Shown piece by piece: positions 1 to 22,580 of a DNA stretch of 64,000 nucleotides. Made by a program: the position numbers and the translations under genes. The notes below the pieces were generated by a model, which had not been told where the DNA came from, searched no databases, and saw only the letters and a program-made list of their open reading frames with translations. Every line of letters starts with the position of its first letter. Positions within the stretch are counted from its first letter, which is position 1. The stretch lies in NCBI RefSeq assembly GCF_055900595.2, contig NZ_CM148325.1; one strand, 5' to 3'.

Positions 1-80
1 ATTTGTTTCCCCATCTACACGTTTATCGTCATATTTTTGTATAGCTATTCTCAGCATTCGTGGGTAGATTATTTTTTTTC

Positions 81-200
81 CAACCGCAGCGCATCCACAT
101 ACCGCCCCTCGCTGTTCTGCTGCCACAACCAGCCCAGCCCCTGCTGCGCCTGCGTTAACATTTTTGCTAGCCAGCACGGTCACGGCAGGCAATTCTATGA
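81..200 (-). pseudogene. Degenerate non-coding duplicate of the 3' end of the tagF-like gene
   Basis: About 110 bp (84-190) aligns colinearly with 1183-1290, the 3' coding end of the 1163-1933 gene, with about 13 mismatches counted by eye; similarity decays beyond. No intact minus-strand ORF covers it. Confidence 0.5.
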
Positions 201-206
201 CAGGTA

Positions 207-680
207 CTACTCATCCGTACAACCCAGCCCCCGGCGCTGAACCACTTCACTGGCAAACGTAGCTCCGGTTTTTTTCATTATTCCTTTTTGTATTTTTTGC
301 AGCGCGGGAAATGAGATTCTCCTGCATGAATCCTCTTCCCATATATCACCAGTTACAGGGCTAACTGAAAATAGTCCCCACACATCTGTCGCTCCGGCGG
401 AAGGAGAATCATAACCTACCCCAAAACTAAAATACCCAGGATGATACAGGTTACCTTTTTTATCTTTCAGAGAACCGTCAAGAAAAAACCCAGACAATTC
501 CACATTATATTTTTCATTTTTTAGTGAAAAAACCAATAATGCCTGCGCCTGTATTTCAGTAAGACCTGACTGGTTAACAGTCGTTAGATCAAACCGCGGC
601 ACATTCCTGATAAGAATTTCAGCACAACAATTCACGGACACGACCATGAAAAGCAATACTGATATTAATTTACAGGACAT
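207..680 (-). CDS. Putative T6SS immunity protein (N-terminal signal peptide or membrane anchor), cognate to the upstream effector candidate
   Basis: 157-aa ORF whose start overlaps the stop of the 665-1135 ORF by 16 nt. N-terminal hydrophobic stretch LISVLLFMVVSVNCCA. AT-rich relative to the flanking T6SS core. No recognisable catalytic motif. Confidence 0.45.
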   Translation of the reverse strand: MSCKLISVLLFMVVSVNCCAEILIRNVPRFDLTTVNQSGLTEIQAQALLVFSLKNEKYNVELSGFFLDGSLKDKKGNLYHPGYFSFGVGYDSPSAGATDVWGLFSVSPVTGDIWEEDSCRRISFPALQKIQKGIMKKTGATFASEVVQRRGLGCTDE

Positions 681-1135
681 GTTATTCTCCGCTTAACCAT
701 ATTAATCACCCCCACTAACTCACTAGCATAACCGGTATGGCCGCCATTACTGTTTTTACCTGAATTAAAACCAGAATCAATCAATGCCTGCGCAAATTGC
801 TCCGGAGATTTTTTATTTCTGACCGCATTACCAAATCGGATTGCAAAGGACTTTCCGCTAGTTGAAAAAGAGGTATAAGTGGCAACCCACACTTGATTAC
901 TCCCCAGCGGGTGAACCTGTCCTGACTGTAAAGGTGCCGGACCATGCATGGAAAAGTAGTTATTGTATTCTGTCGCGATTCTACCCTGCCCGTAAAAGGA
1001 CTCCTTTGCAGCAAGCCCCAGGATATTTTCCACAGGCACATCAAGTTGCTTAGCGATTAATTCACATTCTTTCAGATATTGCTGTACAAACCTGACTGCA
1101 CCAGTGTTATTACAGGCTTTATCATAAGACCCCAT
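665..1135 (-). CDS. Putative T6SS peptidoglycan hydrolase effector with FlgJ-like N-acetylglucosaminidase (GH73-like) domain
   Basis: 156-aa ORF with no signal peptide. LGLAAKESFYGQG resembles the AQAALESGWG motif of the FlgJ glucosaminidase domain, and YTSF...FAQALIDSGF resembles the downstream conserved block. Sits directly after tagF-like at the 3' end of the T6SS operon. Confidence 0.5.
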   Translation of the reverse strand: MGSYDKACNNTGAVRFVQQYLKECELIAKQLDVPVENILGLAAKESFYGQGRIATEYNNYFSMHGPAPLQSGQVHPLGSNQVWVATYTSFSTSGKSFAIRFGNAVRNKKSPEQFAQALIDSGFNSGKNSNGGHTGYASELVGVINMVKRRITCPVN

Positions 1136-1162
1136 GATTCACTACTCCTTGTCTGATTATTT

Positions 1163-1933
1163 TTAATGCGGCCGGATATCCAGCCGCAACGCATCCACAT
1201 ACCGCCCCTCGCTGTTCTGCTGCCAGAACCAGCCCTGCCCCTGCTGCGCCTGCGTCAGCATTTTGTCCGGCCAGCCCGGCCACGGCAGGTGGCGCACACC
1301 GGGCAGTTCCACTACCGGCACGTCCGGCAGGCCGGTGAGTTCCCGGCTACGCTGCGGTACACGTCGTAAGCCGCGTAGCCACTGCGCCCAGCGCGGCCCC
1401 GGTCGCCACATCGCCCAGAGCTGGTCTGTCTGCTCCGCCAGTCGACCGCAGCGTTCTGTCTGTGGTGAGACATGAGCTGCCGTCAACTGCGCCAGCCAGT
1501 ACAGCCAGCCCTGTGTGTCATCCAGGCTCTCTTCCAGCCATTCCCGCCCGACACGCTGGTAAATCACCAGTGGCCACGGCCTGCCCGTACTGTCACGCGA
1601 GGCGGTCAGCACCCCGGTCAGCCACTCATCGCGCCCGCCAATGGGGAGAAATCCCGGCGACAGCACAAAACTCCACGGCAATGGGTGGTGCTCCGGTAGT
1701 GCCGTTTTCTCACGTGGTGACAGGTGCATCCAGCCGTCATTTGTTCCGGCCTTCTCGGCATCCGCGCCGTCCGGCACCACGATATGCCGCCCCTGTCCCA
1801 GCCACGTCTGCTGGTTCAGCCACGCCTGCCACACCTGCCCTTCGTTCGCGCTCACCCGCCAGCGCACGTAGTCCCGCTGGTCCGGCAGTCTGCCGAACAT
1901 CGCCGGAGCCGATACCTCTGCCCGGCGCATCAC
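1163..1933 (-). CDS. tagF: T6SS-associated protein, TagF-like (ImpM/DUF2094 type; position equivalent to SciT of Salmonella SPI-6)
   Basis: 256-aa ORF; start overlaps the tssM stop (translational coupling). Call rests on gene order after tssM and on size; family assignment is from memory, not motif-verified. Confidence 0.5.
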   Translation of the reverse strand: MMRRAEVSAPAMFGRLPDQRDYVRWRVSANEGQVWQAWLNQQTWLGQGRHIVVPDGADAEKAGTNDGWMHLSPREKTALPEHHPLPWSFVLSPGFLPIGGRDEWLTGVLTASRDSTGRPWPLVIYQRVGREWLEESLDDTQGWLYWLAQLTAAHVSPQTERCGRLAEQTDQLWAMWRPGPRWAQWLRGLRRVPQRSRELTGLPDVPVVELPGVRHLPWPGWPDKMLTQAQQGQGWFWQQNSEGRYVDALRLDIRPH

Positions 1934-4900
1934 AGCGCTCGCTCCGGGCAGGCGAAGCGTTGCAATAGCCCGCGGTTCACCGGGTCAAAATCCCGTCCGG
2001 CGGTGATTTCCAGCACCACCCGCCGCCCGTCAAAACTGTACTCCACCTGCTGTGTTCCCCGTACCACCGTCTCCTGCGCGTTACCCGCATCCAGCAGGTG
2101 AAACAGCGCCCATGGCCCGTTAGTCAGCAACGTCGAGGTGTCCTGGCGGATGCGCGGGCTGGCGGTGATTTCCGCCATTGAGCCGTTGCGCGGCCCCGGC
2201 CAGTTCACTTTCAGCGGCCTGACCGGGCCGTGAGCGTAGCGAAGCACCTGGCCGTCAATGTCAATCACCAGTTCGGTGATGGCAGGGTCCATATCCACCA
2301 CCCGCACCTGCATCGCCCAGGAAAACTTTTTCCCGCCTTCCCCATTAAAAAAAACGCTGCGGATCTGTTTCGCCTCCTGAAACGGTGTCAGGTCCGGCCC
2401 AAGCAACGTCATGTTGCCTTCGGTCGGTTTGTAGCGCCACGGGTTGCTGGCGGTGTCCGCCAGTGGGGCCAGTTGCTTCGTCCAGAACGCATCCAGCACG
2501 CCGCCGCTGGCAAAGATATGGTTAAAATCGTCCGCGCTGACTTCCTGCGGGCTGTCGGTGAAGGGGTAGCGCCCGTCGATGGCGTCGCGGCACTCATCAC
2601 CGATCACCGCTTCCATCTGCGCGTTCAGCACTTCACCGGTGCCGGCGTTGATTTTTCGCGTTCCCTGCTGCGTGAGATCCAGCAGAATATTTTTCAGTGG
2701 CGCGGGCAGTTTTGCCGCCTCCAATTGCAGTTTATCCGCCGCAGAAATGCGGCCAGGTAATGTGCTCGCTGCCAGTGCACTATCAGCGATGGTGAGCTGG
2801 GTGTAATACTCATTGAGCATCGTCAGCAGCGAATTTAACTGCGGCGCGCCGCCGCCCTGCCCGCTGTCTGTCCGCCCGGAAACCACTTCCCGCAAGGCGG
2901 CGAAACGGTCATCCACCAGTGATTTCTCTAGCCGCTCTTCCGGGTGGATGTCCTGCAATAGCTTTGCCGTCTGCACTGCTTTTCCCACATTGCCGGAGAG
3001 CCGGTCCTGCGTGCGCTGGGCCATCTGCTTTTGTCTGGCCTGCGCATCCAGCGGCGGCACCAGCGTGGTCTGCTCCACCACCGCTTTACTCAGGCGCATC
3101 AGCGGGGAATCCGGCGAGGCCAGGGTACGCAGCACCTGAAGGTCATACGCCAGCCCGGGACTGCCGTCTTCCCCGGCACTGTTGATGCTGTGAATACTGG
3201 CCAGAAAATCCTGCCAGCGGCGGGCATATTCAGCCAGGTACAGGCGGCGTACCTCACGGGTAACCGGGAGTTCCTGCCCCGGCAACTGGCTCATCACAAT
3301 ATCCGTCGTTTTTTTTTGCGTGTTTTCCCGGCCCATCACCCAGGCGTCGTCCGCTGATGCGGCTGCGACAAACTCCGACAGCCGTTTGTCGAACAGTTCC
3401 CGGTAGCCTTCGCGAGTGAAGATGCCGGGCACGCCCCGATCCAGCGGCGCGCCATCCGTGCGGACAAAAACCGTTCCCGCATCCGCGCCCACAGCGCGAA
3501 CCAGCGAAAACTCCTGCGGTGCTTCGCTCTCCATGGAAGCCAGGGCTCGAGTGTAGATACGCTCGGTGCTGGTATGGCCGTCAAGGAAAGCTCGCGCCTG
3601 GCGGATCAGCCCCTCATCTTTTTCCCAGGGCAAATGCACCACGCGGCTGCCGTCAAACAGGGCATCGATATGCTCCAGCACGGCGGCGCGACCGCCGAAC
3701 TCCGCCACGCTGTCGCGGTTGCCCAGGTCGTTCAGCACCCAGGCGTGGATCTCCGCCGCGTTGTATTTATCCTCGTGGTCCTTATCGAGGTTCAGCAACA
3801 GATAAACATGCAGGGCGTCATAGGCGGCTTTGCTGTCCTGACGCGCAATCGCATCCGAAAGCACGTATTCCATGCGTTTCACCAGCGGTGGCAGCAGTAA
3901 CTGGTCCAGCAGACGGTCATACAGGGATGCGACGCTCTCCATCACCGGCGGAACGCTGTAAAGACCATAACACCAGGCCAGCGGCGGCGAGTCCGGGTCC
4001 AGTCCCGGCCATGCAGAGAGCGCCCGTGCCTGGTTCAGCAGGGCCGGAACAGGCTGCATAGCAGGTTTTCCGGTATAGGCTTTGACATCACCATCCAGTT
4101 GGGTCGTCCGGCTGGCGATTTCATTCAGATAACCGCTGTTCCCCTGCTGGCTACCCTGCATGCCCTGCCACAACCAGAAAGCCAGCGCCAGTACCAGCAG
4201 ATGCCCGCCAGTACGCAGCAGGCGATAACGCCAGGCCCATTGAAGATTCGGCTCCACCAGGTGCGCTTCGCGGAAGATAAACTGCGTCAGTAGATCGTGC
4301 AGGAAATAGCTGCGGTTGCCGTCCGGCAGGGTATGGGATGGGGAATCAGCCTTCCCTTTGATCGCCCGGACAAAACGCTGCCAGATGCCCGACTGGTCAG
4401 CCACGGCGTCTGCCTGCGCCTGCGCGGCGCTGGTAAAAAATACGCCGCGCAGGGTGTTGTTAAGCTGGGTGGCGTCAAATTTTGAGTCGAGGAAAATCTG
4501 CTCAATGGCTTCCAGCAGCGGCGCACCCAGCGCGGCAAATTCACGCGGGAAGCGGTAGAGCCGCTGGCGGCTTTGAAGGTCGTACTCTTCCTGCAACCGG
4601 GTATCCAGCCCCTGATCCAGCCGCAGCGTCAGGTTTGCCAGTTCCCGGCCACAGAGCGCATGCAGCGACTGCGGATCGCTGGCGTGACGCCTGCGGCTGT
4701 AAGGCAGGGTGAAGCCCCAAACCTGGGCGCGCAGGTGGCTGGTCAGCCCGTGGAAATACTCCGTAAAGCCCGGCAGCAGATCCATTTTGGTGACGACCAG
4801 ATAGACCGGAAAACGAATACCCAGCGTCTCCCGCAGTTCCGCCAGCCGCGCACGCAGGGCCGCACAGGCAGCCAGTCGTTCCGCCGGGGACTGCGCGGTC

Positions 4901-5796
4901 AGATCCGCCACGTTCAGCGTCAGGATCACACCGTTGAGCGGTGCGCCAGGGCGGTGCTTACGCAGCAGCCCAAGAAACCCCTGCCACTCCCCGGCGTTAC
5001 GCTGAGTCGCGCTGATTTCGCCGCCGTCATCGTGGCGGGCATAGCGCCCGGCGGTATCGATGAGTACAGCCTCGTTGGTGAACCACCAGTCACAGTGCAG
5101 CGTGCCGCCGCCCGGCACGGTGAGGATATGCGCGGTCTGCTCCATCTGCTCCGCCAGCGGAAACTGTAGCCCGGTGTTAAGTAGCGCGGTGGTTTTGCCA
5201 TCGCCGGGGCTGCCGATAACCATAAACCACGGCAGTTCGTACAGGAAGCGCTTCCCTTCCAGGACCTTACGCCAGCCGGGCAGGTCCACCCGCAGTTGTT
5301 TCAGTTGCCGGATGGCACGGGTGACAATATGGCTGACCGTGCGCAGGTCGGCTTTAATTTCCCCGGCCACCGGCACGTCTTCCCCGCGCGGATGCAGGAA
5401 ACGGCGCAGCAGTTGTTCATCCAGGCGCAGCGCCCGCCACAGTCGGTACAGGCCATAAAGCGCATAAGTCAGCAGGATCAGGCCGATAAGCGTCAGACGC
5501 AGCCACAGCGGCGCAAACGGGCGAACGTCACCGAAGGCCAGCAGGGGTGAAACAAAACCGATGACCAGGCACAGAACCGTTACGCCAATGATGCTCATCG
5601 ACCAGTTCACCAGCCACAGGGCGAGGAACATCAGTAACAGAACGATGGTGACTACCCGGCTCCCCACAGATGCCAGCGGATGCAGGGTATCAAACGCCAC
5701 CAGCGGCCCGATAAACCAGACCAGCAACGCCAGCATCACCACGCCGACAACGGCCAGCGCGCGGCGGGAAAACAGCATACTGAGAAATTTTTGCAT
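1930..5796 (-). CDS. tssM: T6SS membrane complex protein TssM (IcmF family)
   Basis: 1288-aa ORF with N-terminal transmembrane helices, Walker A motif GSPGDGKTT, and a large C-terminal periplasmic region. Coupled to the upstream and downstream genes. Confidence 0.9.
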   Translation of the reverse strand: MQKFLSMLFSRRALAVVGVVMLALLVWFIGPLVAFDTLHPLASVGSRVVTIVLLLMFLALWLVNWSMSIIGVTVLCLVIGFVSPLLAFGDVRPFAPLWLRLTLIGLILLTYALYGLYRLWRALRLDEQLLRRFLHPRGEDVPVAGEIKADLRTVSHIVTRAIRQLKQLRVDLPGWRKVLEGKRFLYELPWFMVIGSPGDGKTTALLNTGLQFPLAEQMEQTAHILTVPGGGTLHCDWWFTNEAVLIDTAGRYARHDDGGEISATQRNAGEWQGFLGLLRKHRPGAPLNGVILTLNVADLTAQSPAERLAACAALRARLAELRETLGIRFPVYLVVTKMDLLPGFTEYFHGLTSHLRAQVWGFTLPYSRRRHASDPQSLHALCGRELANLTLRLDQGLDTRLQEEYDLQSRQRLYRFPREFAALGAPLLEAIEQIFLDSKFDATQLNNTLRGVFFTSAAQAQADAVADQSGIWQRFVRAIKGKADSPSHTLPDGNRSYFLHDLLTQFIFREAHLVEPNLQWAWRYRLLRTGGHLLVLALAFWLWQGMQGSQQGNSGYLNEIASRTTQLDGDVKAYTGKPAMQPVPALLNQARALSAWPGLDPDSPPLAWCYGLYSVPPVMESVASLYDRLLDQLLLPPLVKRMEYVLSDAIARQDSKAAYDALHVYLLLNLDKDHEDKYNAAEIHAWVLNDLGNRDSVAEFGGRAAVLEHIDALFDGSRVVHLPWEKDEGLIRQARAFLDGHTSTERIYTRALASMESEAPQEFSLVRAVGADAGTVFVRTDGAPLDRGVPGIFTREGYRELFDKRLSEFVAAASADDAWVMGRENTQKKTTDIVMSQLPGQELPVTREVRRLYLAEYARRWQDFLASIHSINSAGEDGSPGLAYDLQVLRTLASPDSPLMRLSKAVVEQTTLVPPLDAQARQKQMAQRTQDRLSGNVGKAVQTAKLLQDIHPEERLEKSLVDDRFAALREVVSGRTDSGQGGGAPQLNSLLTMLNEYYTQLTIADSALAASTLPGRISAADKLQLEAAKLPAPLKNILLDLTQQGTRKINAGTGEVLNAQMEAVIGDECRDAIDGRYPFTDSPQEVSADDFNHIFASGGVLDAFWTKQLAPLADTASNPWRYKPTEGNMTLLGPDLTPFQEAKQIRSVFFNGEGGKKFSWAMQVRVVDMDPAITELVIDIDGQVLRYAHGPVRPLKVNWPGPRNGSMAEITASPRIRQDTSTLLTNGPWALFHLLDAGNAQETVVRGTQQVEYSFDGRRVVLEITAGRDFDPVNRGLLQRFACPERAL

Positions 5797-6083
5797 TATT
5801 GTTCAGAACTCCATGCGAGAATCAGTAATAGCAAAATGCCGCAAGCTGAAAAAATCCTTCCAGTACGGGCTACTGAAAGAAAATAAAGAGCAATCTGAAC
5901 AATTATCAAAATAAAATAAATCAACATTTTGATTATTTCTCTGTTCCCATTTCCCTGAGGCAACGTTGTCATTGAAGGATCCATATCCTGCATCCATTGA
6001 TACTCATTCCCGGAAAAAAGCATGATGATGATCAGACCCATAATGAATAACAACCATCCTGATATCTGAATTATTCTTCTCAC
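5796..6083 (-). CDS. Small predicted 3-TM inner-membrane protein of unknown function (SciR-position gene)
   Basis: 95-aa ORF with three hydrophobic segments (IIQISGWLLFIMGLIIIMLF, MLIYFILIIVQIALYFL, IFSACGILLLLILAW). Its stop overlaps the tssM start. Strongly AT-rich. Confidence 0.45.
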   Translation of the reverse strand: MRRIIQISGWLLFIMGLIIIMLFSGNEYQWMQDMDPSMTTLPQGNGNREIIKMLIYFILIIVQIALYFLSVARTGRIFSACGILLLLILAWSSEQ

Positions 6084-6091
6084 GAAGACTC

Positions 6092-6766
6092 CTAATGGGC
6101 GATGAGTAAATTAGAGAAATGCAACCAGTTGTTGACAATAAAATTGCCATAGCTGGTATCTTCCTTTATTTTCTCCAGAGTAAGCGACATACCCCGGTTA
6201 TAACGGGCACCAATAATTCTTATCTGCTCTTTCGTCAGGTGTGGTAAGGAGGACTGAAATTCATCTCTTTCAGCTAATTGATAAAGATGTCTGGCCACAA
6301 GTTGAATATTAAAAATATCATGCTGGAGGCAATTTGCCAGTTCACGCAATTGAGAGGTATCCATTTTTGACTCATCAAGCCCAAGCGTTCTGGCTGCGGT
6401 TCGCAATTGCATACTCACTGCACCAAAAGATGTTTTTTCTGGTCTCGAAGTTATTGTGATATGTTCATCAATCCACTCAGGCCCACTCCAGTCAATAGTC
6501 CGAGCATCAAATGCCAGCATATCTACAATACTGGGATCCCCCCCGACTTCTATCCAACACACACCTGCCAGTAAAGGTGCTGGCAAATTATATGTATTGG
6601 CAGCCGATGTTATCAGAAGATGGTTATGTTTTACCCAGCCATCTTTGAAATAACGCCCAAACGGTACACCACCGCCCCATTTTTTTGGCGCTAATTTCCA
6701 GAAAAGAAATTCGGTCACGCCCCATACCGGTGAATGATTCGATGCATTGCAGTCCAGATTATTCAT
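6092..6766 (-). CDS. Hypothetical protein with lysozyme/lytic-transglycosylase-like motifs (SciQ-position gene); candidate peptidoglycan-active accessory or effector
   Basis: ORF 6092-6775. ATG at 6766 has GGAG 8 nt upstream; an alternative GTG at 6775 overlaps the tssL stop. Motif series WIEVGG ... GAVSMQL ... GARYNRG is reminiscent of SLT-domain E / GLMQ / AYNxG motifs but with atypical spacing. No signal peptide. AT-rich. Confidence 0.4.
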   Translation of the reverse strand: MNNLDCNASNHSPVWGVTEFLFWKLAPKKWGGGVPFGRYFKDGWVKHNHLLITSAANTYNLPAPLLAGVCWIEVGGDPSIVDMLAFDARTIDWSGPEWIDEHITITSRPEKTSFGAVSMQLRTAARTLGLDESKMDTSQLRELANCLQHDIFNIQLVARHLYQLAERDEFQSSLPHLTKEQIRIIGARYNRGMSLTLEKIKEDTSYGNFIVNNWLHFSNLLIAH

Positions 6767-6771
6767 TTTTC

Positions 6772-8088
6772 TCACTCCACCACCAGAATTTCCACCCGAC
6801 GGTTCTGCGCCCGTCCGGTTTTAGTGCTGTTATCGGCCACCGGTACGGTATCTCCTTTCCCGACGACCCGAATCCGGCTGACCGGAACACCACCGGACGT
6901 CAGCAGTGAAGCCACTTCCGTCGCCCGTTTTTCCGACAACACCTGGTTGGAGGGGAATTCAGCGGAGTGGATCGGCTGACTGTCGGTGTGTCCGGTCACC
7001 GTCACCGCGCCGCCCACACGCGCAATCTCTCGCGCGGCCTTATCAATCACCGGGCTTAGCGCATCATTCACGGTTTTCTGCCCTGGTATAAACATCGTAT
7101 CGCCACGAAAGATTACACGGCTGTGATGGTCATCTTCCTCCACCGTCAGCAGGCCACGGGCGATTTCGTTCGCCAGCAGGATTTTCAGCCGCAGTTTATG
7201 CACTGGAACGGGTGGCGGCGGTAGATTTTTACCAATGGCGTCGATACGCTGTTGTACGGTTTCGATAGCGAGGTTCATCCGGTGGCTGTAAAGGCCAAAC
7301 AGCGTCAGCATCACCAGCAGGGCGATTCCGGCACTCAGCCAGACCGGCACGCGGCGCATCCGTCGCATTCGCCCACTGACGGCACCGGCAAAACCCGGCG
7401 AGAGCGTCGGCGTGATCGGATCGCGACGCTGGACCAGTTGAGTCAGCAGTTGCTGACGAATATCGTCCAGTTGTTTACGTCCGTCAGGCCGTACACTGTA
7501 GCGGCCTTCAAAACCCAGCCCCAGAATGTGGTAAATGATCTCCAGTACATCGTTGTGCTCCTGGAAGCTTGCGGCCAGACGCCCAATTATCTGAAACAGC
7601 TTGATGCCGCCTTCACTTTCGCCATGAAAAGTGACCAGCAGGCTTTTTCCAGCCCAGACACCGCGCCGCCCCCAGGTGGTGTTGTTGGCGGCTTCGTCCA
7701 GCGAAGTGCATAGGCAATAACGCACAGCCAGCACATGTTCGCGGCGAAGGTTTGCCTGATCGCATAACGTCTGATATCGACGAACTTCACGCTCCAGTAG
7801 GGCACGATAATGTTCGACAAAACCAGGGGATAGTTCACGGGGCATTTGCGCCAGCGCGCACAGCAGAGGGCTTGCCGCCGCTAAAAGGGGATTCACGGCA
7901 GCGGTGATTTCAGCCAGCCGGATCTTCACATCCGGGCCGTCTTCAACCACCACCTTTATATCTTCCCTGCGAAGGTTGTCCTGTATTGCCGTATCGTAAC
8001 CGTCACTGTCGGGCAGTTTTACTCCCCCGGCTGATGGCTGGAAGGGCAGGGTATTCGCCGCAGGCGGCGTCAGGATCTCATCGGTCAT
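6772..8088 (-). CDS. tssL: T6SS membrane protein TssL (DotU-like) with C-terminal OmpA/MotB-like peptidoglycan-binding domain
   Basis: 438-aa ORF with a DotU-like N-terminal region, one TM segment (VWLSAGIALLVMLTLFGLY), and a C-terminal OmpA-like region (TVTGHTDSQP...SEKRA...NRRVEI). Overlaps the tssK stop. Confidence 0.85.
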   Translation of the reverse strand: MTDEILTPPAANTLPFQPSAGGVKLPDSDGYDTAIQDNLRREDIKVVVEDGPDVKIRLAEITAAVNPLLAAASPLLCALAQMPRELSPGFVEHYRALLEREVRRYQTLCDQANLRREHVLAVRYCLCTSLDEAANNTTWGRRGVWAGKSLLVTFHGESEGGIKLFQIIGRLAASFQEHNDVLEIIYHILGLGFEGRYSVRPDGRKQLDDIRQQLLTQLVQRRDPITPTLSPGFAGAVSGRMRRMRRVPVWLSAGIALLVMLTLFGLYSHRMNLAIETVQQRIDAIGKNLPPPPVPVHKLRLKILLANEIARGLLTVEEDDHHSRVIFRGDTMFIPGQKTVNDALSPVIDKAAREIARVGGAVTVTGHTDSQPIHSAEFPSNQVLSEKRATEVASLLTSGGVPVSRIRVVGKGDTVPVADNSTKTGRAQNRRVEILVVE

Positions 8089-13190: not shown

Positions 13191-13408
13191 ACTTAATGTC
13201 CATCAATTGACCAGTGCATGAGATATGCTCTGGCGGGAGGGCGATATGTTGCAGAGATACTGCCCCTTGCACGCGCATTACCAAGCGCGCGCAAAAAATT
13301 TTCTACCGATGCACGAAAAGTCCCCTGCAAATCATTAGTGGAAGAACTTACAGGAAAGCGACTGACCCACATTGCGCCACTTAATTCTTTTGCCATAAGG
13401 ATGCTCCA

Positions 13409-16042: not shown

Positions 16043-16374
16043 CTGTTACACCTAATGATGTAATAACATATAAATGATACATAAAAATAACTGTATCGAT
16101 TAAAACTTCTAATTAATAGAATTATCAAAAAGGCAGAATAAAACAATGATGCATATCACAGAACACAATGTAATATAGCAGGTAGTATCTTTTTCATGGT
16201 GATATTCAATAGAGCAAGCCAATTTCATACGCACCGTGAATATATTAAATTGTAAATCGCCACTATATATTTCCGTGAAAACTTATATTGATAAAGTAAA
16301 TTGATCAGCTTTGCTTATCTAAAAATTTAGAAAACTTATTCTTTTGAAAGAAACACTCTACACAGTGATACGCA
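16043..16374. promoter_or_regulatory. AT-rich divergent control region between the clpV operon and the fha-like/tssE-F-G-A operon
   Basis: About 330 bp of strongly AT-rich non-coding sequence flanked by divergently oriented start codons. Individual promoter elements not resolved. Confidence 0.5.
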
Positions 16375-17286
16375 ATGAAACCAAATATTACGTGGGAACT
16401 CCAAAAAATACAGGCGCATGGGATCGCCGATAACACAATTTACGCGACTGAAGGAACACAAATTATCTTCACCGTTACCTCTCCCTGGATTCCTGTTTTT
16501 GATGTGAATGATGATGTAAAGATTGCGCTCAGACTGACCCGCCACGAAGAAGCATGGTGGATTATCAATCAGTCTACCGAATATTGCTGTACGGTAAACG
16601 ACCAGATTGTGGAACCTCATCACCGTATGCGTCTGAATGAAGGCGACCTGATAGAATGGGGATTATCTTCATGGTGCCTTGTGCATGGCAATCCATCATC
16701 TCCGAACCTAAGCGCAGTAAAGACATCGCAGACTGCCACCACGTCGGAAACAATAACCGAATATCTGGATCTGGATTGGTTCAGGCAGCAGCATCTGACA
16801 TCACAAAATCCATTCGATATCATTCCTGTTCATGGAGCCTCCTCCACCGGAGAAGATGCGGAAAAAGAAAATGCCCTGACCCGACTTTATCAGGAATACC
16901 GCGAAGCGTTGTTATCTCCCGAACAAGATCTTCATCGCCATGCTGATCCTTTTCCCTTTAACGAAGAACCCTCCTCGCAGGATCTGGATTCATTGCGTGA
17001 CCTGGTCACCGAAGCCGAGACATTGCAGGATATGGTCACTGGCGGGTTAAGCATTGACGCTATTCTCAATGTACTGGATGCCACCGGCGAAGATGAAACT
17101 ATCTGGCCTGTCGAAAACACTCCCCCTGACATCCTGCATTTACTTTCCCCGGAATACGCCCCGGAAACAGCGCATAACACCGTTCTGCCCGACCTGACAC
17201 GCAAAGAGCATCGCATCATTGGCATTGACAGCCATTACCGGATAAACCCGGCACAACACGGAGATACCTCTCATGATAAACAATAA
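16375..17286 (+). CDS. T6SS-associated hypothetical protein, possibly degenerate FHA-domain (TagH/Fha-like); SciA position
   Basis: 303-aa ORF, first gene of the plus operon. N-terminal region has weak FHA-like character (RLNEGDLIEWG); acidic/proline-rich C-terminal half. Assignment is weak. Confidence 0.3.
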   Translation: MKPNITWELQKIQAHGIADNTIYATEGTQIIFTVTSPWIPVFDVNDDVKIALRLTRHEEAWWIINQSTEYCCTVNDQIVEPHHRMRLNEGDLIEWGLSSWCLVHGNPSSPNLSAVKTSQTATTSETITEYLDLDWFRQQHLTSQNPFDIIPVHGASSTGEDAEKENALTRLYQEYREALLSPEQDLHRHADPFPFNEEPSSQDLDSLRDLVTEAETLQDMVTGGLSIDAILNVLDATGEDETIWPVENTPPDILHLLSPEYAPETAHNTVLPDLTRKEHRIIGIDSHYRINPAQHGDTSHDKQ

Positions 17287-18103
17287 CGAGCTACCGGCTA
17301 CCCTGTCGGCGCTGCTGCGGGATTATTCCGTGGCGGAAGGCATTCAGATGGCCGAGCAGCAGGTCAGGATGCTCCCAGCGCAGACCTTCCGCCGCCACAG
17401 TCTATTTCAGTTATTGTGCGTGGCAGGCGACTGGTCGCGGGCACTGCAACAGATCCAGCTATGCGCCCGGATGGACGCAAATTATACCCGCGAAGCGCAG
17501 GTATTTGGCGAGCTGATCCGCTGTGAGATATACCGCCACGCCTGCTTTCAGGGAGAACAACGGCCCGATTTTATTCTTCCGCCGCCCGCCTGGATGGAGG
17601 ATCTGCTGACCGCCCTCGCCTGTAACGCCCGTGGTGAAGCGCAGGAAGCTGACGCCCACCGCAGCCGCGCACTTGAGGCCATAACAGATACTGCAGGGCA
17701 GTGGAATGGCGGCGCATTTGACTGGATTAGCGACAGCGACTCCCGTATCGGTCCGGTACTCGAACTGATCGCGGGCGGGGTATATATCTGGCTGCCGTTT
17801 TCACAAATCTGTTCGCTGAAATCGCCGCGGCCTGCGCATCTGACCGATTTGCTCTGGAAACCCGTCAACGTCACCCTGCACAACGGTGACACGCACAGCG
17901 CCTGGCTGTTTCCCCGCTACAGCGGCTCTGAAAAGGCCGCCGATACCCTGCGTCTGTGCCGGGAAACGGTCTGGCAGGACGGGCCGGGAGAGACGCTGGT
18001 ACAGGCGCAGGGTCAGAGGGTGTGGCTCACCAGCCAGGGCGATATCAGCCTGCTGGATTTGTCCACCTGTACCTTTAATACCTCCGAAGGAAGCGACGCG
18101 TGA
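17273..18103 (+). CDS. tagJ: T6SS accessory protein TagJ (ImpE family)
   Basis: 276-aa ORF, overlaps the preceding and following genes; size and position match ImpE/TagJ (SciB position in SPI-6-type clusters). Confidence 0.55.
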   Translation: MINNNELPATLSALLRDYSVAEGIQMAEQQVRMLPAQTFRRHSLFQLLCVAGDWSRALQQIQLCARMDANYTREAQVFGELIRCEIYRHACFQGEQRPDFILPPPAWMEDLLTALACNARGEAQEADAHRSRALEAITDTAGQWNGGAFDWISDSDSRIGPVLELIAGGVYIWLPFSQICSLKSPRPAHLTDLLWKPVNVTLHNGDTHSAWLFPRYSGSEKAADTLRLCRETVWQDGPGETLVQAQGQRVWLTSQGDISLLDLSTCTFNTSEGSDA

Positions 18104-18594
18104 GCACCTCCCGCCAGCGTCCGGGCAGCCACCTGCTGCCCACACTGTTTGACCGCCTGTGCGATGACGCCCCAGACCAGAAGCGCGACCACGATATCAG
18201 CGTCAGCCCGGTTCAGCTTAAGGAGATCATCCGCCGGGATTTGTCGTTTCTGCTCAACACCGTCAGCCATGAAGATGATATTGATGCCGCACGTTACCCA
18301 CACGCGGCGGCATCCGTACTGAACTATGGCCTGCCGCCACTGGCGGGCAGCTTTCTGTACGAACACAAATGGGACGATATTCGCAGGGCCATTTTGCGTA
18401 CCATCATCCGGTTTGAACCCCGGCTGCAAGCGTCCACCCTGCAAATCATCCCACTTCAGGATGAGCGCCACCAGAGCGGCCATAACACATTACAGTTTGA
18501 AATTCGCGGCGAGATCCTCACGCAGCCCTACCCGATGGCATTCCGGGTACGCAGCGCGCTGGATATGGAACAGAGCCGCATTACGTTTTTTTAA
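18100..18594 (+). CDS. tssE: T6SS baseplate protein TssE (gp25-like)
   Basis: 164-aa ORF directly upstream of tssF with ATGA overlap to tagJ; size and position of TssE. Confidence 0.75.
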   Translation: MSTSRQRPGSHLLPTLFDRLCDDAPDQKRDHDISVSPVQLKEIIRRDLSFLLNTVSHEDDIDAARYPHAAASVLNYGLPPLAGSFLYEHKWDDIRRAILRTIIRFEPRLQASTLQIIPLQDERHQSGHNTLQFEIRGEILTQPYPMAFRVRSALDMEQSRITFF

Positions 18595-18609
18595 TTCAGA
18601 GAGAAACCG

Positions 18610-20493
18610 ATGGATCCACGGCTACTGGAATACTACAACCGCGAACTGAGCTATCTGCGGGAAACGGGAGCCGAATTTGCCGCCCGTCATCCTAAAGTCG
18701 CCGCCAGACTGGGTATGCAGGGAACGGATATTGCCGATCCGTATGTGGAGCGTATGGTCGAAGCCTTTAGCTTCCTGACCGCCCGCACGCAGCTAAAAAT
18801 TGACGCTGAATTCCCCCGTTTCACCCAGCGCCTGCTGGAAGTAGTCAGCCCCAATTACGTCACCCCCACGCCCTCAATGAGCGTGGCGCAGCTCCATCCC
18901 GACCCGGAAGAAGGCGATCTGGCGAAGGGATTTACCGTCCCGCGCGACACGGCCTTTTTTTCCGCCATTCCGGAAGGCGAAAGTACCGCCTGTCAGTTTC
19001 GCAGCAGCCAGGATGTAACGCTGTGGCCGCTCGCCATCGAAGAGGTGCGACTGACCGCCGCACCGCCGGATATGCCTGCCCTGCACCGCTCTCTGCCAGC
19101 CAACATTCACGTCGCTGGTGCGCTGCGTATTACCCTGCGCACCTTTGGTGAACTGACATTCAGTCAGCTTGCAGGGCTGGACAGGCTTCCGTTTTATCTC
19201 TGTGGCGAGGAGCGCACGGCCTCACACCTGTTCGAACTGCTACATACCAGCGCCATCGCGACCCTGGCTGGCATTCCGGGGCATTTTGACGGTGCGCTGG
19301 ATGTGAATCTGCAACATCCCGTTATGTACGAAGGCCTGGAGCTGGATCAGGGGCTGCTGCCGCTGGCGTGGAACGTGTTTCACGGTCATAACCTGCTGCA
19401 TGAATATTTTGCCTGTCCAGAACGCTTTTATTTTTTCACCCCGACAGGCCTGTCTGCCGGGTTACAGAAAATTGACGGTGGCGTGGCGGAGATTGTTATC
19501 CTGCTGAACCGCCTGCCGCCGGACTGGCTGATCCACCAGACAAACGCGGCACAGTTCAGCCTGTTCTGTACCCCGATTATCAACCTGTTTCCCCGCGTCA
19601 CCGCACGGATCGATGTCACGCACAGCACGACGGAACAGCATCTGGTGGTAGACAGAACCCATCCACTGGATTATGAGGTGTTCTCGGTCCAGGAAGTGGA
19701 AGGGCTGGAAACCGACACCACACGGAAGATGGCCTTTCGCCCGCTCTACCACACCCGCAATAATGATGAAGGCAATCACGGACGTTATTTTTCCCTGCGC
19801 CGGGAGCCCCGCCGCTTATCAGAAAACGCCCGCCGTTACGGCACCCGTACCCCCTATACGGGCTCGGAAGTGTTCCTGTCGCTGGTTGACCAATATGAAG
19901 CGCCGTACCCAGAAAATCTGCGCCACATCACCATCACGGCCATGGTCACTAACCGCGATCTGCCCTGTCTTATTGCACGTAATGGCCGGGACGATCTAAC
20001 CGTGGATGCGGCAATCCCAGTGGCGGGCGTAGGGCTTATCCGCCCGCCGCGCTCGCCGCAGCCCCCGCTGGCTGAACGTGAGATGGCCTGGCGTTTGATC
20101 CGCCAGTTATCCTTTAATTATCTGCCGCTGGCCGATCTGGATCACCGTACCGGCGGCCAGGCGCTGCGCGATCTGCTTAACCTGTTTATTCCGGCGCATG
20201 ACAGCCCACAGTCGCGCCAGGTACGCAGTCTGATTGGCTGCAACACCACCCCGGTCACCCGCCGTCTGCCCGGTACCGGGCTGCTGGTCTATGGACGCGG
20301 CGTCAGTTGTGAACTGACGGTGGATGAGGAAGGGTTCTCCGGTATCAGTCCGTATCTGTTCGGCCTGGTGCTGGAGCACTATATCGCCCGTCATGTTTCC
20401 ATTAATACCTTCTCGCAGATGACGCTGCACAGCATGCAGCGCGGCAAAATTATGACCTGGCCTGTCAGGGCGGGACAGCGGGGAAGCGTATGA
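18610..20493 (+). CDS. tssF: T6SS baseplate protein TssF
   Basis: 627-aa ORF between tssE and tssG, overlapping the tssG start; size and position of TssF. Confidence 0.85.
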   Translation: MDPRLLEYYNRELSYLRETGAEFAARHPKVAARLGMQGTDIADPYVERMVEAFSFLTARTQLKIDAEFPRFTQRLLEVVSPNYVTPTPSMSVAQLHPDPEEGDLAKGFTVPRDTAFFSAIPEGESTACQFRSSQDVTLWPLAIEEVRLTAAPPDMPALHRSLPANIHVAGALRITLRTFGELTFSQLAGLDRLPFYLCGEERTASHLFELLHTSAIATLAGIPGHFDGALDVNLQHPVMYEGLELDQGLLPLAWNVFHGHNLLHEYFACPERFYFFTPTGLSAGLQKIDGGVAEIVILLNRLPPDWLIHQTNAAQFSLFCTPIINLFPRVTARIDVTHSTTEQHLVVDRTHPLDYEVFSVQEVEGLETDTTRKMAFRPLYHTRNNDEGNHGRYFSLRREPRRLSENARRYGTRTPYTGSEVFLSLVDQYEAPYPENLRHITITAMVTNRDLPCLIARNGRDDLTVDAAIPVAGVGLIRPPRSPQPPLAEREMAWRLIRQLSFNYLPLADLDHRTGGQALRDLLNLFIPAHDSPQSRQVRSLIGCNTTPVTRRLPGTGLLVYGRGVSCELTVDEEGFSGISPYLFGLVLEHYIARHVSINTFSQMTLHSMQRGKIMTWPVRAGQRGSV

Positions 20494-21485
20494 GCGACGA
20501 TTTCACTCAGGCGCAGGAAACCCCATGGCGTTACGGTTTTCTGAACCTGATGCGCCGCGTGGATGTGCAGTTGTGTACCGTTCTGGCGGGCAACACCTGG
20601 CAACCACGGATGGAAAAATTTCGCCTCGGACAAACGCCCACGCTGACCTTTGCGCCACGGGAAATCGCCAGTGTGAGCTGGCAGGAAGGACGCCTGCACA
20701 TCAGCCTGTACAGTCTCGGGCTGTGGGGGCCGAACGGCCCGCTGCCGCTGCACTACACCGAACTGGCGCGTAACCGGACCGAAAGCCGCCGCGATCCGAC
20801 GCTGACCCGTTTTTCCGATCTTTTTCATCACCGCTGGCTGACGCAGTTTTACCAGGCCTGGCGCAGCGCCCAGTCCGCCGGAGGCGGTCTGGATAAACCG
20901 CAACATGACCGCTTTGCCTTTTATGTCGCCAGCCTCAGCGGGCAGGATTTGCGGGAGAGCGCCGACAGCCCGCTGCCGGATCACGTTCGCCTGGCAGCAT
21001 CGGCGCATCTGGTGCGTGAGTCCCGCAACCCCGACGGGCTGGCCGCCACGCTGGCTCACTATTTCGGCGTGCCTTTCCGGATACAAGAGTATGTCCTGCA
21101 CTGGATAGCCGTGGCGGACGATGAGATCACCCGGCTGGGGATGCCTGCTTCCTCTTCCGTTATTGGCAATGGCGCACTCATCGGCCAGGCGGTGCCGGAT
21201 ATGCAGTATAAATTCCGGCTGGTGATTGGCCCGCTGACGCTGGCCGATTATCAGCGTTTTCTGCCTGGCGGCAATAACCTGCCAGTCCTGACGGAACTGG
21301 TTCGCGCTTTCACCGGTTTTGAATACTGCTGGGAAATTGAGCTACAGCTTAAACCACATGCTGCCCCTCCGGCTGTTACCGGTGGCCCATACCAGCTTGG
21401 CTGGACCGCCTGGGCCGGTAAAGCCATGCACGACAACCCGGTGACGGGCATGATTTTCGAACCTGAACACTATCTGGCGCACTGA
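20490..21485 (+). CDS. tssG: T6SS baseplate protein TssG
   Basis: 331-aa ORF coupled to tssF; size and position of TssG. Confidence 0.85.
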   Translation: MSDDFTQAQETPWRYGFLNLMRRVDVQLCTVLAGNTWQPRMEKFRLGQTPTLTFAPREIASVSWQEGRLHISLYSLGLWGPNGPLPLHYTELARNRTESRRDPTLTRFSDLFHHRWLTQFYQAWRSAQSAGGGLDKPQHDRFAFYVASLSGQDLRESADSPLPDHVRLAASAHLVRESRNPDGLAATLAHYFGVPFRIQEYVLHWIAVADDEITRLGMPASSSVIGNGALIGQAVPDMQYKFRLVIGPLTLADYQRFLPGGNNLPVLTELVRAFTGFEYCWEIELQLKPHAAPPAVTGGPYQLGWTAWAGKAMHDNPVTGMIFEPEHYLAH

Positions 21486-21495
21486 GGATAATTTT

Positions 21496-22542
21496 ATGGA
21501 TACATCCCTGTCTGACCCTGTTTCGGCGGAATGCCCCTGCGGCCCGGATCTGGAGTACGATCCCGAGTACCTGCTGCTGTTCACCCGCGCCGCACCGCGT
21601 GAAGAAGCGCAATATGGCGATTTTGTCAGTACGCCGGAAATCATTAACTGGGCGGAGCTTGAGCGGGATGCCCGCCGCCTGCTGACGCGCAGTAAAGATA
21701 TCCGTATTCTGGTTGTCCTGCTGCGCTGCCGTATCCAGCAGGCCGGTGCCAGGGGACTGGCGGAGGTACTCACGCTGCTGGAAACGTTGTGCGCCACGTA
21801 CCCGGACGCCATCCACCCGCAACTGCTCGCGACTGAAGATATCACCGCCGAAGAGGCGGCTGTGGCACGCAGTAACGCGCTGGCGGCGTTGCTGGACCAC
21901 GAAGGCGTAATGGCGGATATCCGGGGTATCACGCTGTCAAATAATGTCGCCATGCGCCTTCAGGTACGGGATGTGGAGCGTTCGCTGTCTGCATCACGCC
22001 CGGCGGATGCGCTGGCACCGGAATCGGTACGCCAGCAACTGGCCGACCTGGAAGCGCGCGGCGCACTGCCACTTGACGCCTTTCGCCAGGCCGCAGAGAC
22101 CACTGAGCGGCTGCAACGCCATGCGCGTGAAACGCTGAATGAACAGGCACCGAACCTATCCCGTCTGACACAATTGCTGGCTCTGTTGCCGGGAGCGATA
22201 CGGACCACCACGCCGGAGATCCTGCCACAACCAGTGGTTGAACAGCCGGAGAGCACCGCCATCGTTCATACTGAACAGATATCGTCAGAGCAGATTGCGC
22301 TACCGGTGCATATCGCGGAGGAAATATCACCGATGTCCGGCGCAGAACCCAGGCAGATCCGCGACCGGAACGACGCGCTGGAACGCCTGCGTGTCATCCG
22401 TCGCTGGTTTGAGCACAGCGAACCGAGCAGCCCGACCATTCCTTTGCTGCGCCAGGCAGAGCGCCTGGTCGGAAAACGCTTCTCGGAGGTTATAAATGAA
22501 ATTCCAGTAGAACTGCTGGAAAAATGGGATGCGCTGGAGTAA
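21496..22542 (+). CDS. tssA: T6SS protein TssA (ImpA N-terminal domain), short form
   Basis: 348-aa ORF with an ImpA_N-like signature at the N-terminus (CPCGPDLEYDPEY...EAQYGDF...INWAELERDARRLLTRSKDIRILVVLL). Confidence 0.8.
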   Translation: MDTSLSDPVSAECPCGPDLEYDPEYLLLFTRAAPREEAQYGDFVSTPEIINWAELERDARRLLTRSKDIRILVVLLRCRIQQAGARGLAEVLTLLETLCATYPDAIHPQLLATEDITAEEAAVARSNALAALLDHEGVMADIRGITLSNNVAMRLQVRDVERSLSASRPADALAPESVRQQLADLEARGALPLDAFRQAAETTERLQRHARETLNEQAPNLSRLTQLLALLPGAIRTTTPEILPQPVVEQPESTAIVHTEQISSEQIALPVHIAEEISPMSGAEPRQIRDRNDALERLRVIRRWFEHSEPSSPTIPLLRQAERLVGKRFSEVINEIPVELLEKWDALE

Positions 22543-22548
22543 CAGAAG

Positions 22549-22580
22549 TGGCCAGAATTTATAATGTCTGGCCATTTTTT
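22549..22580 (+). terminator. Intrinsic terminator after tssA
   Basis: Stem TGGCCAGA...TCTGGCCA followed by TTTTTT, 7 nt after the tssA stop codon. Confidence 0.7.

Follow-up and report, generated by a model that had tools for sequence, protein, structure and literature searches.

The window analysed here is the whole 64,000-nucleotide stretch of contig NZ_CM148325.1 (NCBI RefSeq assembly GCF_055900595.2), and its positions 1-22542 are occupied by a T6SS island that carries every T6SS core gene but one (12 of 13; tssA-H and J-M) together with the accessory genes tagF, tagJ and tagK (Table 1). The genes form two divergent operons; the minus-strand operon starts with clpV and includes the cargo genes, of which tge2 and tgi2 follow tagF, while the plus-strand operon runs from tagK to tssA. 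The first-pass annotation had described these operons with the correct order, strands and coordinates; however, it had counted thirteen T6SS genes, and the number found is 15 (12 core and 3 accessory). It had also correctly placed tssB after clpV but had missed the two small ORFs located between them.

Table 1. Coordinates, strand and supporting matches of the features identified in the window
Position	Strand	Feature	Evidence
69-189	-	Remnant duplicate of tagF 3′ end, distal copy of 111-bp direct repeat (79-189)	Repeat alignment
207-680	-	tgi2, predicted periplasmic immunity protein for Tge2, 157 aa	PDB 4KT3 chain B, E = 4.7e-36; Pfam T6SS_Tgi2PP, 1.4e-13
665-1135	-	tge2, predicted peptidoglycan glycoside hydrolase (glucosaminidase-family) T6SS effector, 156 aa	PDB 4KT3 chain A, E = 2.2e-46; Pfam Glucosaminidase, 5.5e-9
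1163-1933	-	tagF, accessory gene	TIGR03373, 41.5 bits (cut-off 41.2); Pfam TagF_N, 4.4e-8
1930-5796	-	tssM (IcmF), membrane-complex subunit, 1288 aa	TIGR03348, 1049.7 bits, full-length; 86% identity to SPI-6 TssM
5796-6083	-	95-aa protein, hydrophobic, apparently membrane-spanning segments, candidate immunity partner	No family match
6092-6775	-	Lysozyme/lytic-transglycosylase-fold protein, 227 aa, candidate cell-wall effector	Fold
6772-8088	-	tssL, long form, C-terminal OmpA-like peptidoglycan-binding domain	TIGR03349, 215 bits; TIGR03350, 163.8 bits
8085-9428	-	tssK, baseplate subunit	TIGR03353, 402 bits
9432-9965	-	tssJ, outer-membrane lipoprotein	TIGR03352, 127.6 bits
10033-10518	-	hcp (tssD), tube protein	TIGR03344, 60 bits; 157/161 residues identical to S. 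Typhimurium Hcp1 (STM0276, PDB 5XHH)
10754-12268	-	tssC, sheath large subunit	TIGR03355, 714.8 bits
12293-12838	-	tssB, sheath small subunit	TIGR03358, 190 bits
12900-13190	-	96-aa ORF, N-terminal signal-like segment	Weak thioredoxin-like match only
13193-13396	-	67-aa ORF, doubtful significance	10 homologues only
13409-16042	-	clpV (tssH), sheath-recycling AAA+ ATPase	TIGR03345, 1220.8 bits; 84% identity to SPI-6 ClpV
16043-16374		AT-rich divergent promoter region between operons	GC 27.7%
16375-17286	+	tagK, accessory gene	NF033418, 545.5 bits, full length; marginal FHA match, E = 0.0016
17273-18103	+	tagJ (ImpE family), accessory gene	Pfam ImpE, 1.7e-39
18100-18594	+	tssE, baseplate (gp25-like)	TIGR03357, 67.6 bits
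18610-20493	+	tssF, baseplate	TIGR03359, 619 bits
20490-21485	+	tssG, baseplate	TIGR03347, 333.5 bits
21496-22542	+	tssA, short ImpA-family form, 348 aa	Pfam ImpA_N, 2.7e-29
22675-22751	-	aspV, tRNA-Asp(GUC), chromosomal anchor of the island	ARAGORN, Rfam

Every core gene is full length, and no frameshift was found in the ORFs of the island. The profile searches called for by the first-pass annotation showed that the core ORFs do match T6SS models: TssB, C, D, E, F, G, H, J, K, L and M, as well as TagF and TagK, passed the curated NCBIfam cut-offs with scores far above those expected by chance, and TssA was the only core gene to fall below its own (144.7 bits vs 160.85 for TIGR03363). Three component groups of a canonical class i T6SS are present, i.e., the sheath, tube and recycling ATPase (TssB, TssC, Hcp and ClpV, all above the curated cut-offs), the baseplate and TssA (TssE, F, G and K above the cut-off, and TssA through ImpA_N) and the membrane complex (TssJ, L and M profiles). 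No vgrG or PAAR gene was found in the window. The absence of vgrG and PAAR is probably explained by the window beginning inside the island; the initial description of the island as near-complete would thus reflect the window edge and not gene loss. In strain R32_14_1F, the nearest complete genome, with a 98.2%-identical island whose RefSeq annotation defined our tssJ start, an intact vgrG is found along with DcrB-like and Rhs genes at a distance of 3-11 kb left of position 1 of the window. Based on this strain for the vgrG/PAAR part, we infer that the weapon would be complete in the source strain.

At its other end, the island abuts the 3′ side of aspV, as first proposed, at a distance of 132 bp. 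Its mean GC content is higher than that of the adjacent backbone (54.5% vs 48.1%), also as proposed; however, the rise is not uniform but a mosaic, with the core genes at 50-66%, tagK at 48%, the cargo genes at 36-47% and the divergent promoter region as listed in Table 1. E. coli K-12 carries only yafT-ykfM-yafU′-yafF′ between aspV and yafV, which agrees with the earlier statement that it has no T6SS at this site. Of 5426 complete E. coli genomes, 110 (~2%) carry a near-complete island, and close relatives with a backbone 100% identical to that of the window have only a tssA stub beside aspV. These observations support the view of the island as accessory DNA, and the locus was not found in T6SS-negative E. 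coli backbones, the counter-evidence that the first-pass annotation had named.

The first gene of the plus-strand operon, initially called fha-like, is tagK, given its full-length profile match and its marginal FHA score. Between tssB and clpV, the 96-aa ORF, possibly an orphan immunity protein, has counterparts at the corresponding position in Escherichia, in Citrobacter and at a single Salmonella locus (71-93%). The homologues of the 67-aa ORF (n = 10) range from 48 to 106 aa, and all the named ones come from Escherichia or Shigella. In the 332-bp intergenic region, searches for a sigma-70 promoter and a Fur box gave no match above shuffled controls. The corresponding region of SPI-6 is reported to be under the control of H-NS and Fur, and SPI-6 is repressed by H-NS under standard culture (PMC12288458). 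By analogy with Salmonella, H-NS probably keeps this AT-rich divergent promoter silent under laboratory growth conditions.

Downstream of tagF, tge2 and tgi2 are adjacent and overlap by 16 bp. Both products belong to the Tge2-Tgi2 family and are clear homologues of the Pseudomonas protegens pair Tge2P-Tgi2P (PDB 4KT3); based on its sequence, the tgi2 product carries a hydrophobic N-terminal signal-like segment. Tge2 is a known effector of SPI-6 VR2 (PMC12288458). The pair is bracketed by two copies of the tagF 3′ end, which form a direct repeat (79-189 and 1179-1289) with 89% identity, and the tagF remnant is annotated in R32_14_1F as a partial 'cytoplasmic protein' pseudogene.

The 227-aa lysozyme-fold protein and the 95-aa membrane protein are probably a second effector-immunity pair. 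The former has a lysozyme-like fold, as in the GH23-like peptidoglycan hydrolases (lytic transglycosylases, g-type lysozymes and Tse3), with a putative catalytic glutamate that ends an N-terminal helix; among the curated families (Pfam SLT, NCBIfam) it has no match, its sole match being PHROG 11932, of unknown function. It has neither a signal peptide nor a lipobox, and the GC content of its gene (43%) is cargo-like. Directly after the genes of its homologues in Burkholderia ambifaria and Rhodanobacter, there are ORFs of ~98-102 aa that are homologous to the 95-aa protein (26-30% identity) and have in common with it the motif Y-x-WM-x(3)-DPS. Such a homologue and its small partner also form an orphan two-gene module far from T6SS genes, and the Yersinia homologue stands alone. 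The fold, the position and the conserved two-gene module make the 227-aa protein a candidate effector. It has the lysozyme-like fold in common with P. aeruginosa Tse3 (of the Tse3-Tsi3 pair), although the two proteins are no more than 16-17% identical and Tse3 is about twice as long; the partner is small, hydrophobic and apparently membrane-spanning, whereas Tgi2 is a putative lipoprotein (PDB 4KT3 chain B). Instead of a secreted toxin, the 227-aa protein might be a dedicated peptidoglycan-remodelling enzyme for the passage of TssJLM through the cell wall, a role played by MltE for the EAEC Sci-1 system, and the location of its gene between the membrane-complex genes tssL and tssM would fit such a role. 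We consider this unlikely, since a protein with no signal peptide or lipobox would have no Sec route to its own periplasm, and an unrelated Rap1a-domain gene with a small ORF takes its place in SPI-6, Citrobacter and Enterobacter. The cargo-like GC content and the existence of the two-gene module well away from T6SS loci also argue against it.

The first-pass annotation had noted a resemblance to the Salmonella SPI-6 layout. SPI-6 loci were fetched through the exact Hcp1 protein, and the window proteins were mapped on them by tblastn. The synteny comparison that had been suggested showed the same two divergent operons in collinear order; as in the island, the T6SS of Salmonella enterica SPI-6 (sci cluster, STM0266-STM0290; i3) has tagK-tagJ-tssE-F-G-A opposite clpV-tssB-C-hcp-tssJ-K-L-[cargo]-tssM. 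The fetched loci do not extend as far as the SPI-6 tssG, tssA and tagF genes, and these genes and the aspV anchor are presumed here from the literature. Most proteins of the island are 72-97% identical to their SPI-6 counterparts (97% for Hcp, 95% for TssB, 94% for TssC and 91% for TssF), with TagK at only 56%, and the product lengths are near-equal (TssK 447/447, TssF 627/627, TssE 164/164, TssM 1288/1289). TssB, TssC and Hcp fall into 90%-identity clusters with Salmonella proteins. Both systems have a Tge2-family effector, and some of the gene junctions that hold cargo are common to the two. One of these is tssL-tssM, where SPI-6 has a Rap1a-domain gene and a 143-aa ORF and the island has the lysozyme-fold protein and its small membrane partner; three other related loci likewise differ from the island in their gene pair at this junction. 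The Tae4/Tai4 pair, the second hcp and the 110-aa gene between tssC and hcp of SPI-6 are absent from the island, and the host differs, i.e., the island is in E. coli. SPI-6 is located at aspV in Salmonella (Blondel 2009; PMC12288458), has been classed as i3 (PMC12288458) and has been grouped with B. pseudomallei tss-2 (Blondel 2009).

The best PDB match of TssC was P. aeruginosa H1 TssC1 (5N8N), with 802 bits vs 375 for V. cholerae VipB. By TssC similarity, the P. aeruginosa H1-T6SS and Burkholderia T6SS-1 (B. pseudomallei tss-2) are of the same subtype as the island, and TagJ is present in them; the ClpV homologues of Burkholderiales are 60-65% identical to that of the island. Neither the PpkA/PppA/Fha threonine-phosphorylation module nor the TagQRST genes were seen in the window, and TagK was not detected in the Burkholderia locus. 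On the grounds of protein identity, gene order and TssC similarity, we assign the island to subtype i3. Overall, with a probability of about 90%, positions 1-22542 represent the core part of a T6SS island of the SPI-6 type (subtype i3) that is intact and anchored at aspV in an E. coli chromosome.

Only three classes, T6SS-1 (i2), T6SS-2 (i1) and T6SS-3 (i4b), are recognized in the E. coli literature (PMC12282107), and aspV is a known site of i1 clusters (PMC2808357; PMC12282107); T6SS-2 clusters such as EC042_0210-0226 of E. coli 042 and OI-7 of O157:H7 occupy the same hot spot beside dnaQ-aspV. Both points would favor placing the island in one of these classes. Nevertheless, the 042 i1 cluster, with the order tssB-C-E-F-G-tagH-tssJ-K-L-clpV-vasI-tssA-tssM-vasL-hcp, has an architecture unrelated to that of the island, and its proteins are 25-42% identical, compared with 72-97% to SPI-6 for most genes. 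The i4b reference (042 aai; tssB-tssC-tssE-tssF-tssG-tssI-PAAR-tssA-tssJ-tssK-tssL-tssM-tssH; PMC12282107 Table S2) is also unlike the island, the i2 reference set has TagL, which the island does not have, and TagJ and TagK have no entry in the supplementary tables of the survey (PMC12282107). In a megablast search of the 5426 E. coli genomes, the only sequence in common outside the carriers was a 74-bp ClpV motif in O157 strains. We therefore rejected membership in these classes as extremely improbable. The reference clusters considered were Sci-1 of CFT073 and 042 for i2, the aspV clusters of RS218 and 042 for i1 and aai of 042 for i4b; the sequence test was direct for i1, and i2 and i4b were compared by their listed gene order.

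A recent horizontal import from Salmonella or another enterobacterium would be consistent with the adjoining tRNA gene, the higher mean GC content, the patchy distribution in E. coli and the finding, here and in Blondel 2009, that the nearest relatives outside Enterobacteriaceae are in Snodgrassella and Burkholderiales. We regard it as very unlikely, because individual genes share no more than 64-88% of their DNA sequence with SPI-6 and long stretches 76-82%, and the divergence from Citrobacter amalonaticus matches that of the neighboring genes: nucleotide identity is 78-88% for the T6SS core genes (71-73% for tssJ and tssA) and 82-85% for dnaQ and rnhA. The same architecture, with ClpV at 84-95%, was found in the species-representative genomes of Escherichia sp. 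E1V33, Escherichia sp. MOD1-EC7003 and E69, in C. amalonaticus and in Enterobacter sp. Except for the Enterobacter locus, all of them are at aspV in the same orientation, as is Salmonella according to the literature (Blondel 2009). The cargo slots vary among these relatives, with a Rap1a-type gene in E1V33, Citrobacter and Enterobacter, and a sciJ-like gene is present in all their loci but that of MOD1-EC7003, which ends before this slot; tagK, tagJ, tssE and tssL are more divergent from these relatives than the backbone is. The divergence pattern, in one outgroup comparison, points to old residence rather than recent insertion, and the Escherichia/Salmonella/Citrobacter lineage has most likely had the island at aspV for a long time. 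In most E. coli, it has most likely been lost, or the tRNA gene is flanked by a T6SS of another class.

Following established T6SS biology, TssJ, TssL and TssM would form the envelope-spanning complex, and TssE, F, G and K would form the baseplate together with a VgrG spike whose gene is presumed to lie just beyond the window. TssA would initiate Hcp tube polymerization within the TssBC sheath, the contraction of which would propel Hcp, VgrG and cargo into a neighboring bacterium; ClpV would then recycle the contracted sheath, and TagF, TagJ and TagK would modulate assembly. The target of the cargo would be peptidoglycan, through Tge2 with its immunity protein Tgi2 and probably also through the lysozyme-fold enzyme with its small membrane partner. 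Given this peptidoglycan-attacking cargo, the predicted function of the system is most likely that of a contact-dependent antibacterial weapon.

The island could also be a silent or decaying relic, intact in the window yet non-working in this strain, for example through loss of vgrG or permanent silencing. The deletion of nearly the whole island in close strains, its rarity among complete E. coli genomes, the reported degradation of the related Shigella sonnei T6SS (PMC10579285), the low GC content of the intergenic region and the repression of SPI-6 by H-NS under standard culture (PMC12288458) would all be in line with decay or silencing. However, this has a low probability in our judgment, considering that all ORFs are full length and unshifted, that the exact protein sequences of the island occur on hundreds of contigs, that the mosaic recombination patches relative to R32_14_1F keep the reading frames intact, and that R32_14_1F has the intact vgrG, DcrB-like and Rhs module. 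All eight proteins that were looked up, of the 21 of the island, have verbatim entries in public databases, and the majority of these carry a T6SS annotation. The intact island of the well-studied SPI-6 type is an ordinary, already annotated T6SS, although this type is usually left out of E. coli surveys.

The window is oriented opposite to the K-12 chromosome, and to the right of aspV it carries dnaQ, rnhA, yafS, gloB, mltD, yafD, yafC, dkgB, aspU and the rrnH operon. Several complete E. coli genomes are 100% identical to the window along this backbone (22581-31700), and the best-matching island, that of strain R32_14_1F, is 98.2% identical across all 22,580 bases. Based on the ORF listing and the RefSeq annotation of the R32_14_1F island, a 332-bp spacer separates two divergent operons. 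The minus-strand operon comprises clpV, two small ORFs, tssB, tssC, hcp, tssJ, tssK, tssL, two unnamed ORFs, tssM, tagF and an effector/immunity pair, and the plus-strand operon comprises tagK, tagJ, tssE, tssF, tssG and tssA.

TssB, C, E, F, G, H, J, K, L, M and TagK matched NCBIfam equivalog models full-length and above cut-off, TssL being of the long, OmpA-type form; Hcp (subfamily model) and TagF (domain model) also scored above their NCBIfam cut-offs. TagJ was recognized by Pfam ImpE (1.7e-39) and TssA by Pfam ImpA_N (2.7e-29), the latter falling below the TIGR03363 cut-off (144.7 vs 160.85 bits). With 12 of the 13 core genes and three accessory genes in the window, and nearly all core ORFs recognized by curated models, the two divergent T6SS operons that the first-pass annotation placed beside aspV are real. 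The absence of vgrG, the only missing core gene, is most probably an effect of the window edge, since the R32_14_1F island extends further left, as far as yafV, and there contains an intact vgrG as well as vgrG fragments, one DcrB-like and one Rhs gene, and an ISAs1 remnant.

Features of the aspV-associated island, in window coordinates
Feature	Position	Strand	Remark
T6SS island	1-22542
Direct repeat, distal copy	79-189		111 bp
tgi2	207-680	-
tge2	665-1135	-
tagF	1163-1933	-
Direct repeat, proximal copy	1179-1289		111 bp
Divergent patch	4200-6000		5' part of tssM
95-aa candidate partner ORF	5796-6083	-
227-aa ORF	6092-6775	-
Divergent patch	6600-9000		tssL-tssK
tssC-hcp spacer	10519-10753		235 bp
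96-aa ORF	12900-13190	-
67-aa ORF	13193-13396	-
Divergent patch	13800-15000		mid-clpV
Divergent promoter region	16043-16374
ARAGORN tRNA-His call	20276-20369		94 nt, inside tssF
aspV	22675-22751	-

The window Hcp is identical at 157 of 161 positions to PDB 5XHH, which a paper on VgrS describes as the SPI-6-encoded Hcp1 (STM0276) of S. Typhimurium. Using the exact 5XHH/Hcp1 sequence, we drew four SPI-6 loci from public assemblies; they carry the SPI-6 hallmark hcp1-tae4-tai4-hcp2 and share the operon structure of the window. In tblastn searches with the window proteins, identity to these loci was 97% for Hcp, 95% for TssB, 94% for TssC, 91% for TssF, 86% for TssM, 85% for TssK, 84% for ClpV, 79% for TssL and TssE, 74% for TssJ, 72% for TagJ and 56% for TagK, with nearly equal product lengths. 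These identities and the shared operon structure support the SPI-6 likeness that had been proposed from gene order. The SPI-6 T6SS belongs to subtype i3 (PMC12288458), and Blondel et al. placed it in one group with tss-2 of B. pseudomallei and a cluster from Ralstonia, in agreement with the 60-65% identity of ClpV relatives that we found in Burkholderiales. TssC scored 802 bits against TssC1 of P. aeruginosa H1 (5N8N) and 375 bits against V. cholerae VipB. A ClpV scan of GTDB species representatives returned no Salmonella, which at first seemed to argue against SPI-6 kinship; the cause was the use of exact 8-mer peptide patterns, and the kinship stands because ClpV is 84% identical in direct comparison. 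Some SPI-6 features are absent from the window, namely the tae4-tai4 genes and second hcp that lie just downstream of hcp1 in SPI-6, and a gene of 110 aa between tssC and hcp. A gene of about this size occupies the tssC-hcp spacer in Escherichia sp. E1V33, strain E69, Citrobacter, Enterobacter and the SPI-6 loci, whereas the window spacer measures only 235 bp.

Three Escherichia species-representative genomes and Citrobacter amalonaticus carry the island at the same aspV site and in the same orientation. Compared with Citrobacter, dnaQ and rnhA are 82% and 85% identical at the nucleotide level, and most T6SS core genes fall within 78-88%, tssJ and tssA being lower (71-73%); DNA identity to SPI-6 reaches 76-82% along long stretches. 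From the common site, the match between island and backbone identities and the SPI-6 values, the island appears to have diverged together with the chromosome and to have been lost repeatedly, which disfavours a recent import. Compared with the R32_14_1F island, the window is nearly SNP-free outside three patches that are ~4-11% divergent, a pattern typical of, and here indicating, recombination between island alleles. A GC content above that of the backbone had also been claimed; this holds for the mean (54.5% in the island, 48.1% in the adjacent backbone), but the island is a mosaic, with tagF at 66%, tssM at 62%, tssB, tssC and hcp at ~50%, cargo genes at 36-47% and the divergent promoter region at 27.7%.

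Each of the two effector/immunity ORFs at the left end matches one chain of the Tge2-Tgi2 complex of P. protegens (4KT3; E = 2.2e-46 and 4.7e-36), and the two also match the Pfam families Glucosaminidase and T6SS_Tgi2PP, respectively; Tge2 is already known as an effector from variable region 2 of SPI-6 (PMC12288458). The pair is flanked on both sides by a direct repeat whose copies are 89% identical. Of these, the proximal one coincides with the 3' end of tagF, and the distal one is a duplicate of it, which the annotation of a related genome lists as a pseudogene fragment. The repeat is likely the footprint of cargo-cassette exchange.

Between tssL and tssM, the window carries two unnamed ORFs, whereas SPI-6, Citrobacter and Enterobacter have a Rap1a-domain gene and a small ORF in the same slot. 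The 227-aa product, a lysozyme-fold protein, matched no Pfam or NCBIfam model and has no signal peptide. Its family, with 51-64% identity, extends from Enterobacteriaceae to Burkholderia and Rhodanobacter, and contains an invariant E76 within a conserved GVCWIEVGGDP block, as well as the motifs TSFGxVSxQ and GARYNRG. In Burkholderia ambifaria and Rhodanobacter, homologues of the hydrophobic 95-aa protein lie directly 3' of the 227-aa family members, and the pair stands there as an orphan two-gene module. The two ORFs are a probable second effector-immunity pair, targeting peptidoglycan; the main rival explanation is that the 227-aa protein is a dedicated wall-remodelling enzyme. No named family for it was found in the literature searched, which lay outside subscription journals. 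The cargo slots hold one confirmed family, Tge2/Tgi2, and one candidate pair of cell-wall toxin and immunity protein. Of the small ORFs between clpV and tssB, the 96-aa one has a signal-like N-terminus, and the 67-aa one may or may not be a truncated effector; it has only short homologues, and those that carry a name come from Escherichia or Shigella.

By homology and from established T6SS biology, the system would be a contractile injection machine in which TssJLM form the envelope complex and TssEFGK the baseplate, an Hcp tube primed by TssA lies inside the TssBC sheath, and ClpV recycles the sheath; cell-wall hydrolases would be delivered into neighbouring bacteria, with sister cells shielded by the immunity proteins. 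H-NS silencing has been reported for SPI-6 (PMC12288458), and the AT-rich promoter region would fit similar silencing here. In that region, the best Fur-box match (13/19) did not exceed those in shuffled sequence, and a promoter/terminator scan gave no enrichment over shuffles. An Rfam search returned no families inside the island. The ARAGORN tRNA-His call, repeated at the equivalent place in a second locus (L004), is probably a false positive, as it lies inside the tssF CDS and lacks Rfam support.

Among 5426 complete E. coli genomes, megablast found the island at ≥80% coverage in 110, and ~170 contain at least some portion of it at ≥90% identity. Another 313 genomes with 80-90% matches do not carry a divergent variant; they share only a 74-bp ClpV AAA motif, found in O157:H7 and other strains. 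The K-12 locus (aspV-yafT-ykfM-yafU'-yafF'-yafV) confirms that K-12 has no T6SS at aspV. In the i1-type island of E. coli 042, the first gene after aspV is a 786-bp ORF with the size and position of K-12 yafT; K-12 ykfM, on the opposite strand, is 480 bp, the length of the adjacent 042 hcp gene. Going by ORF size and position, the K-12 aspV-yafV stretch may be an i1 island remnant. All eight window proteins looked up have verbatim public copies, with contig counts per protein ranging from 181 to at least 1000, and most are already annotated under T6SS names in E. coli or other Escherichia.

EC042_0210-0226 (PMC2808357), the T6SS commonly reported at aspV in E. coli, differs wholly from the window island in gene order and shows only 25-42% protein identity. 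Three E. coli classes are recognized, i2 (T6SS-1), i1 (T6SS-2) and i4b (T6SS-3) (PMC12282107, PMC10562709). The rare i4b class, with a prevalence likewise of ~2%, was considered as the identity of the island and rejected, given that the gene order of its reference, the aai cluster of 042 (PMC12282107), is unlike that of the window. Since both the i1 and i4b references differ from the island, its class falls outside the three-class scheme. In the literature searched outside subscription journals, no SPI-6-like or i3 T6SS was found described in E. coli. We tentatively propose, with a joint probability of about 0.4, that E. coli has in the SPI-6-type i3 system a fourth T6SS class, ancestral at aspV in Escherichia, Salmonella and Citrobacter, which most E. 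coli have since lost or had displaced, and that the 227-aa/~95-aa pair is an undescribed, widespread T6SS effector-immunity family. If so, i3 has been missed by E. coli surveys using i1, i2 and i4b, including a 131,610-genome screen. There are indirect hints that the Shigella sonnei T6SS may be of this type: some homologues of TssA and the 67-aa ORF are labelled Shigella flexneri, and Tae4 homologues have been reported in Shigella.

Novelty is low, the system being of a well-known kind and already annotated in public records; apart from two modest points of interest, the class omitted from E. coli T6SS surveys and classifications and the unnamed lysozyme-fold candidate effector pair, it is a textbook T6SS island that changes no concept. 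The aspV site of E. coli can house no fewer than two unrelated classes of T6SS (i1 in 042 and i3 in the window), as aspV is reportedly common to SPI-6 and SPI-20 in Salmonella. Prevalence screens restricted to i1, i2 and i4b miss a Salmonella-type, probably antibacterial, weapon carried by ~2% of complete E. coli genomes, so that its carriers may be labelled T6SS-negative or single-system.
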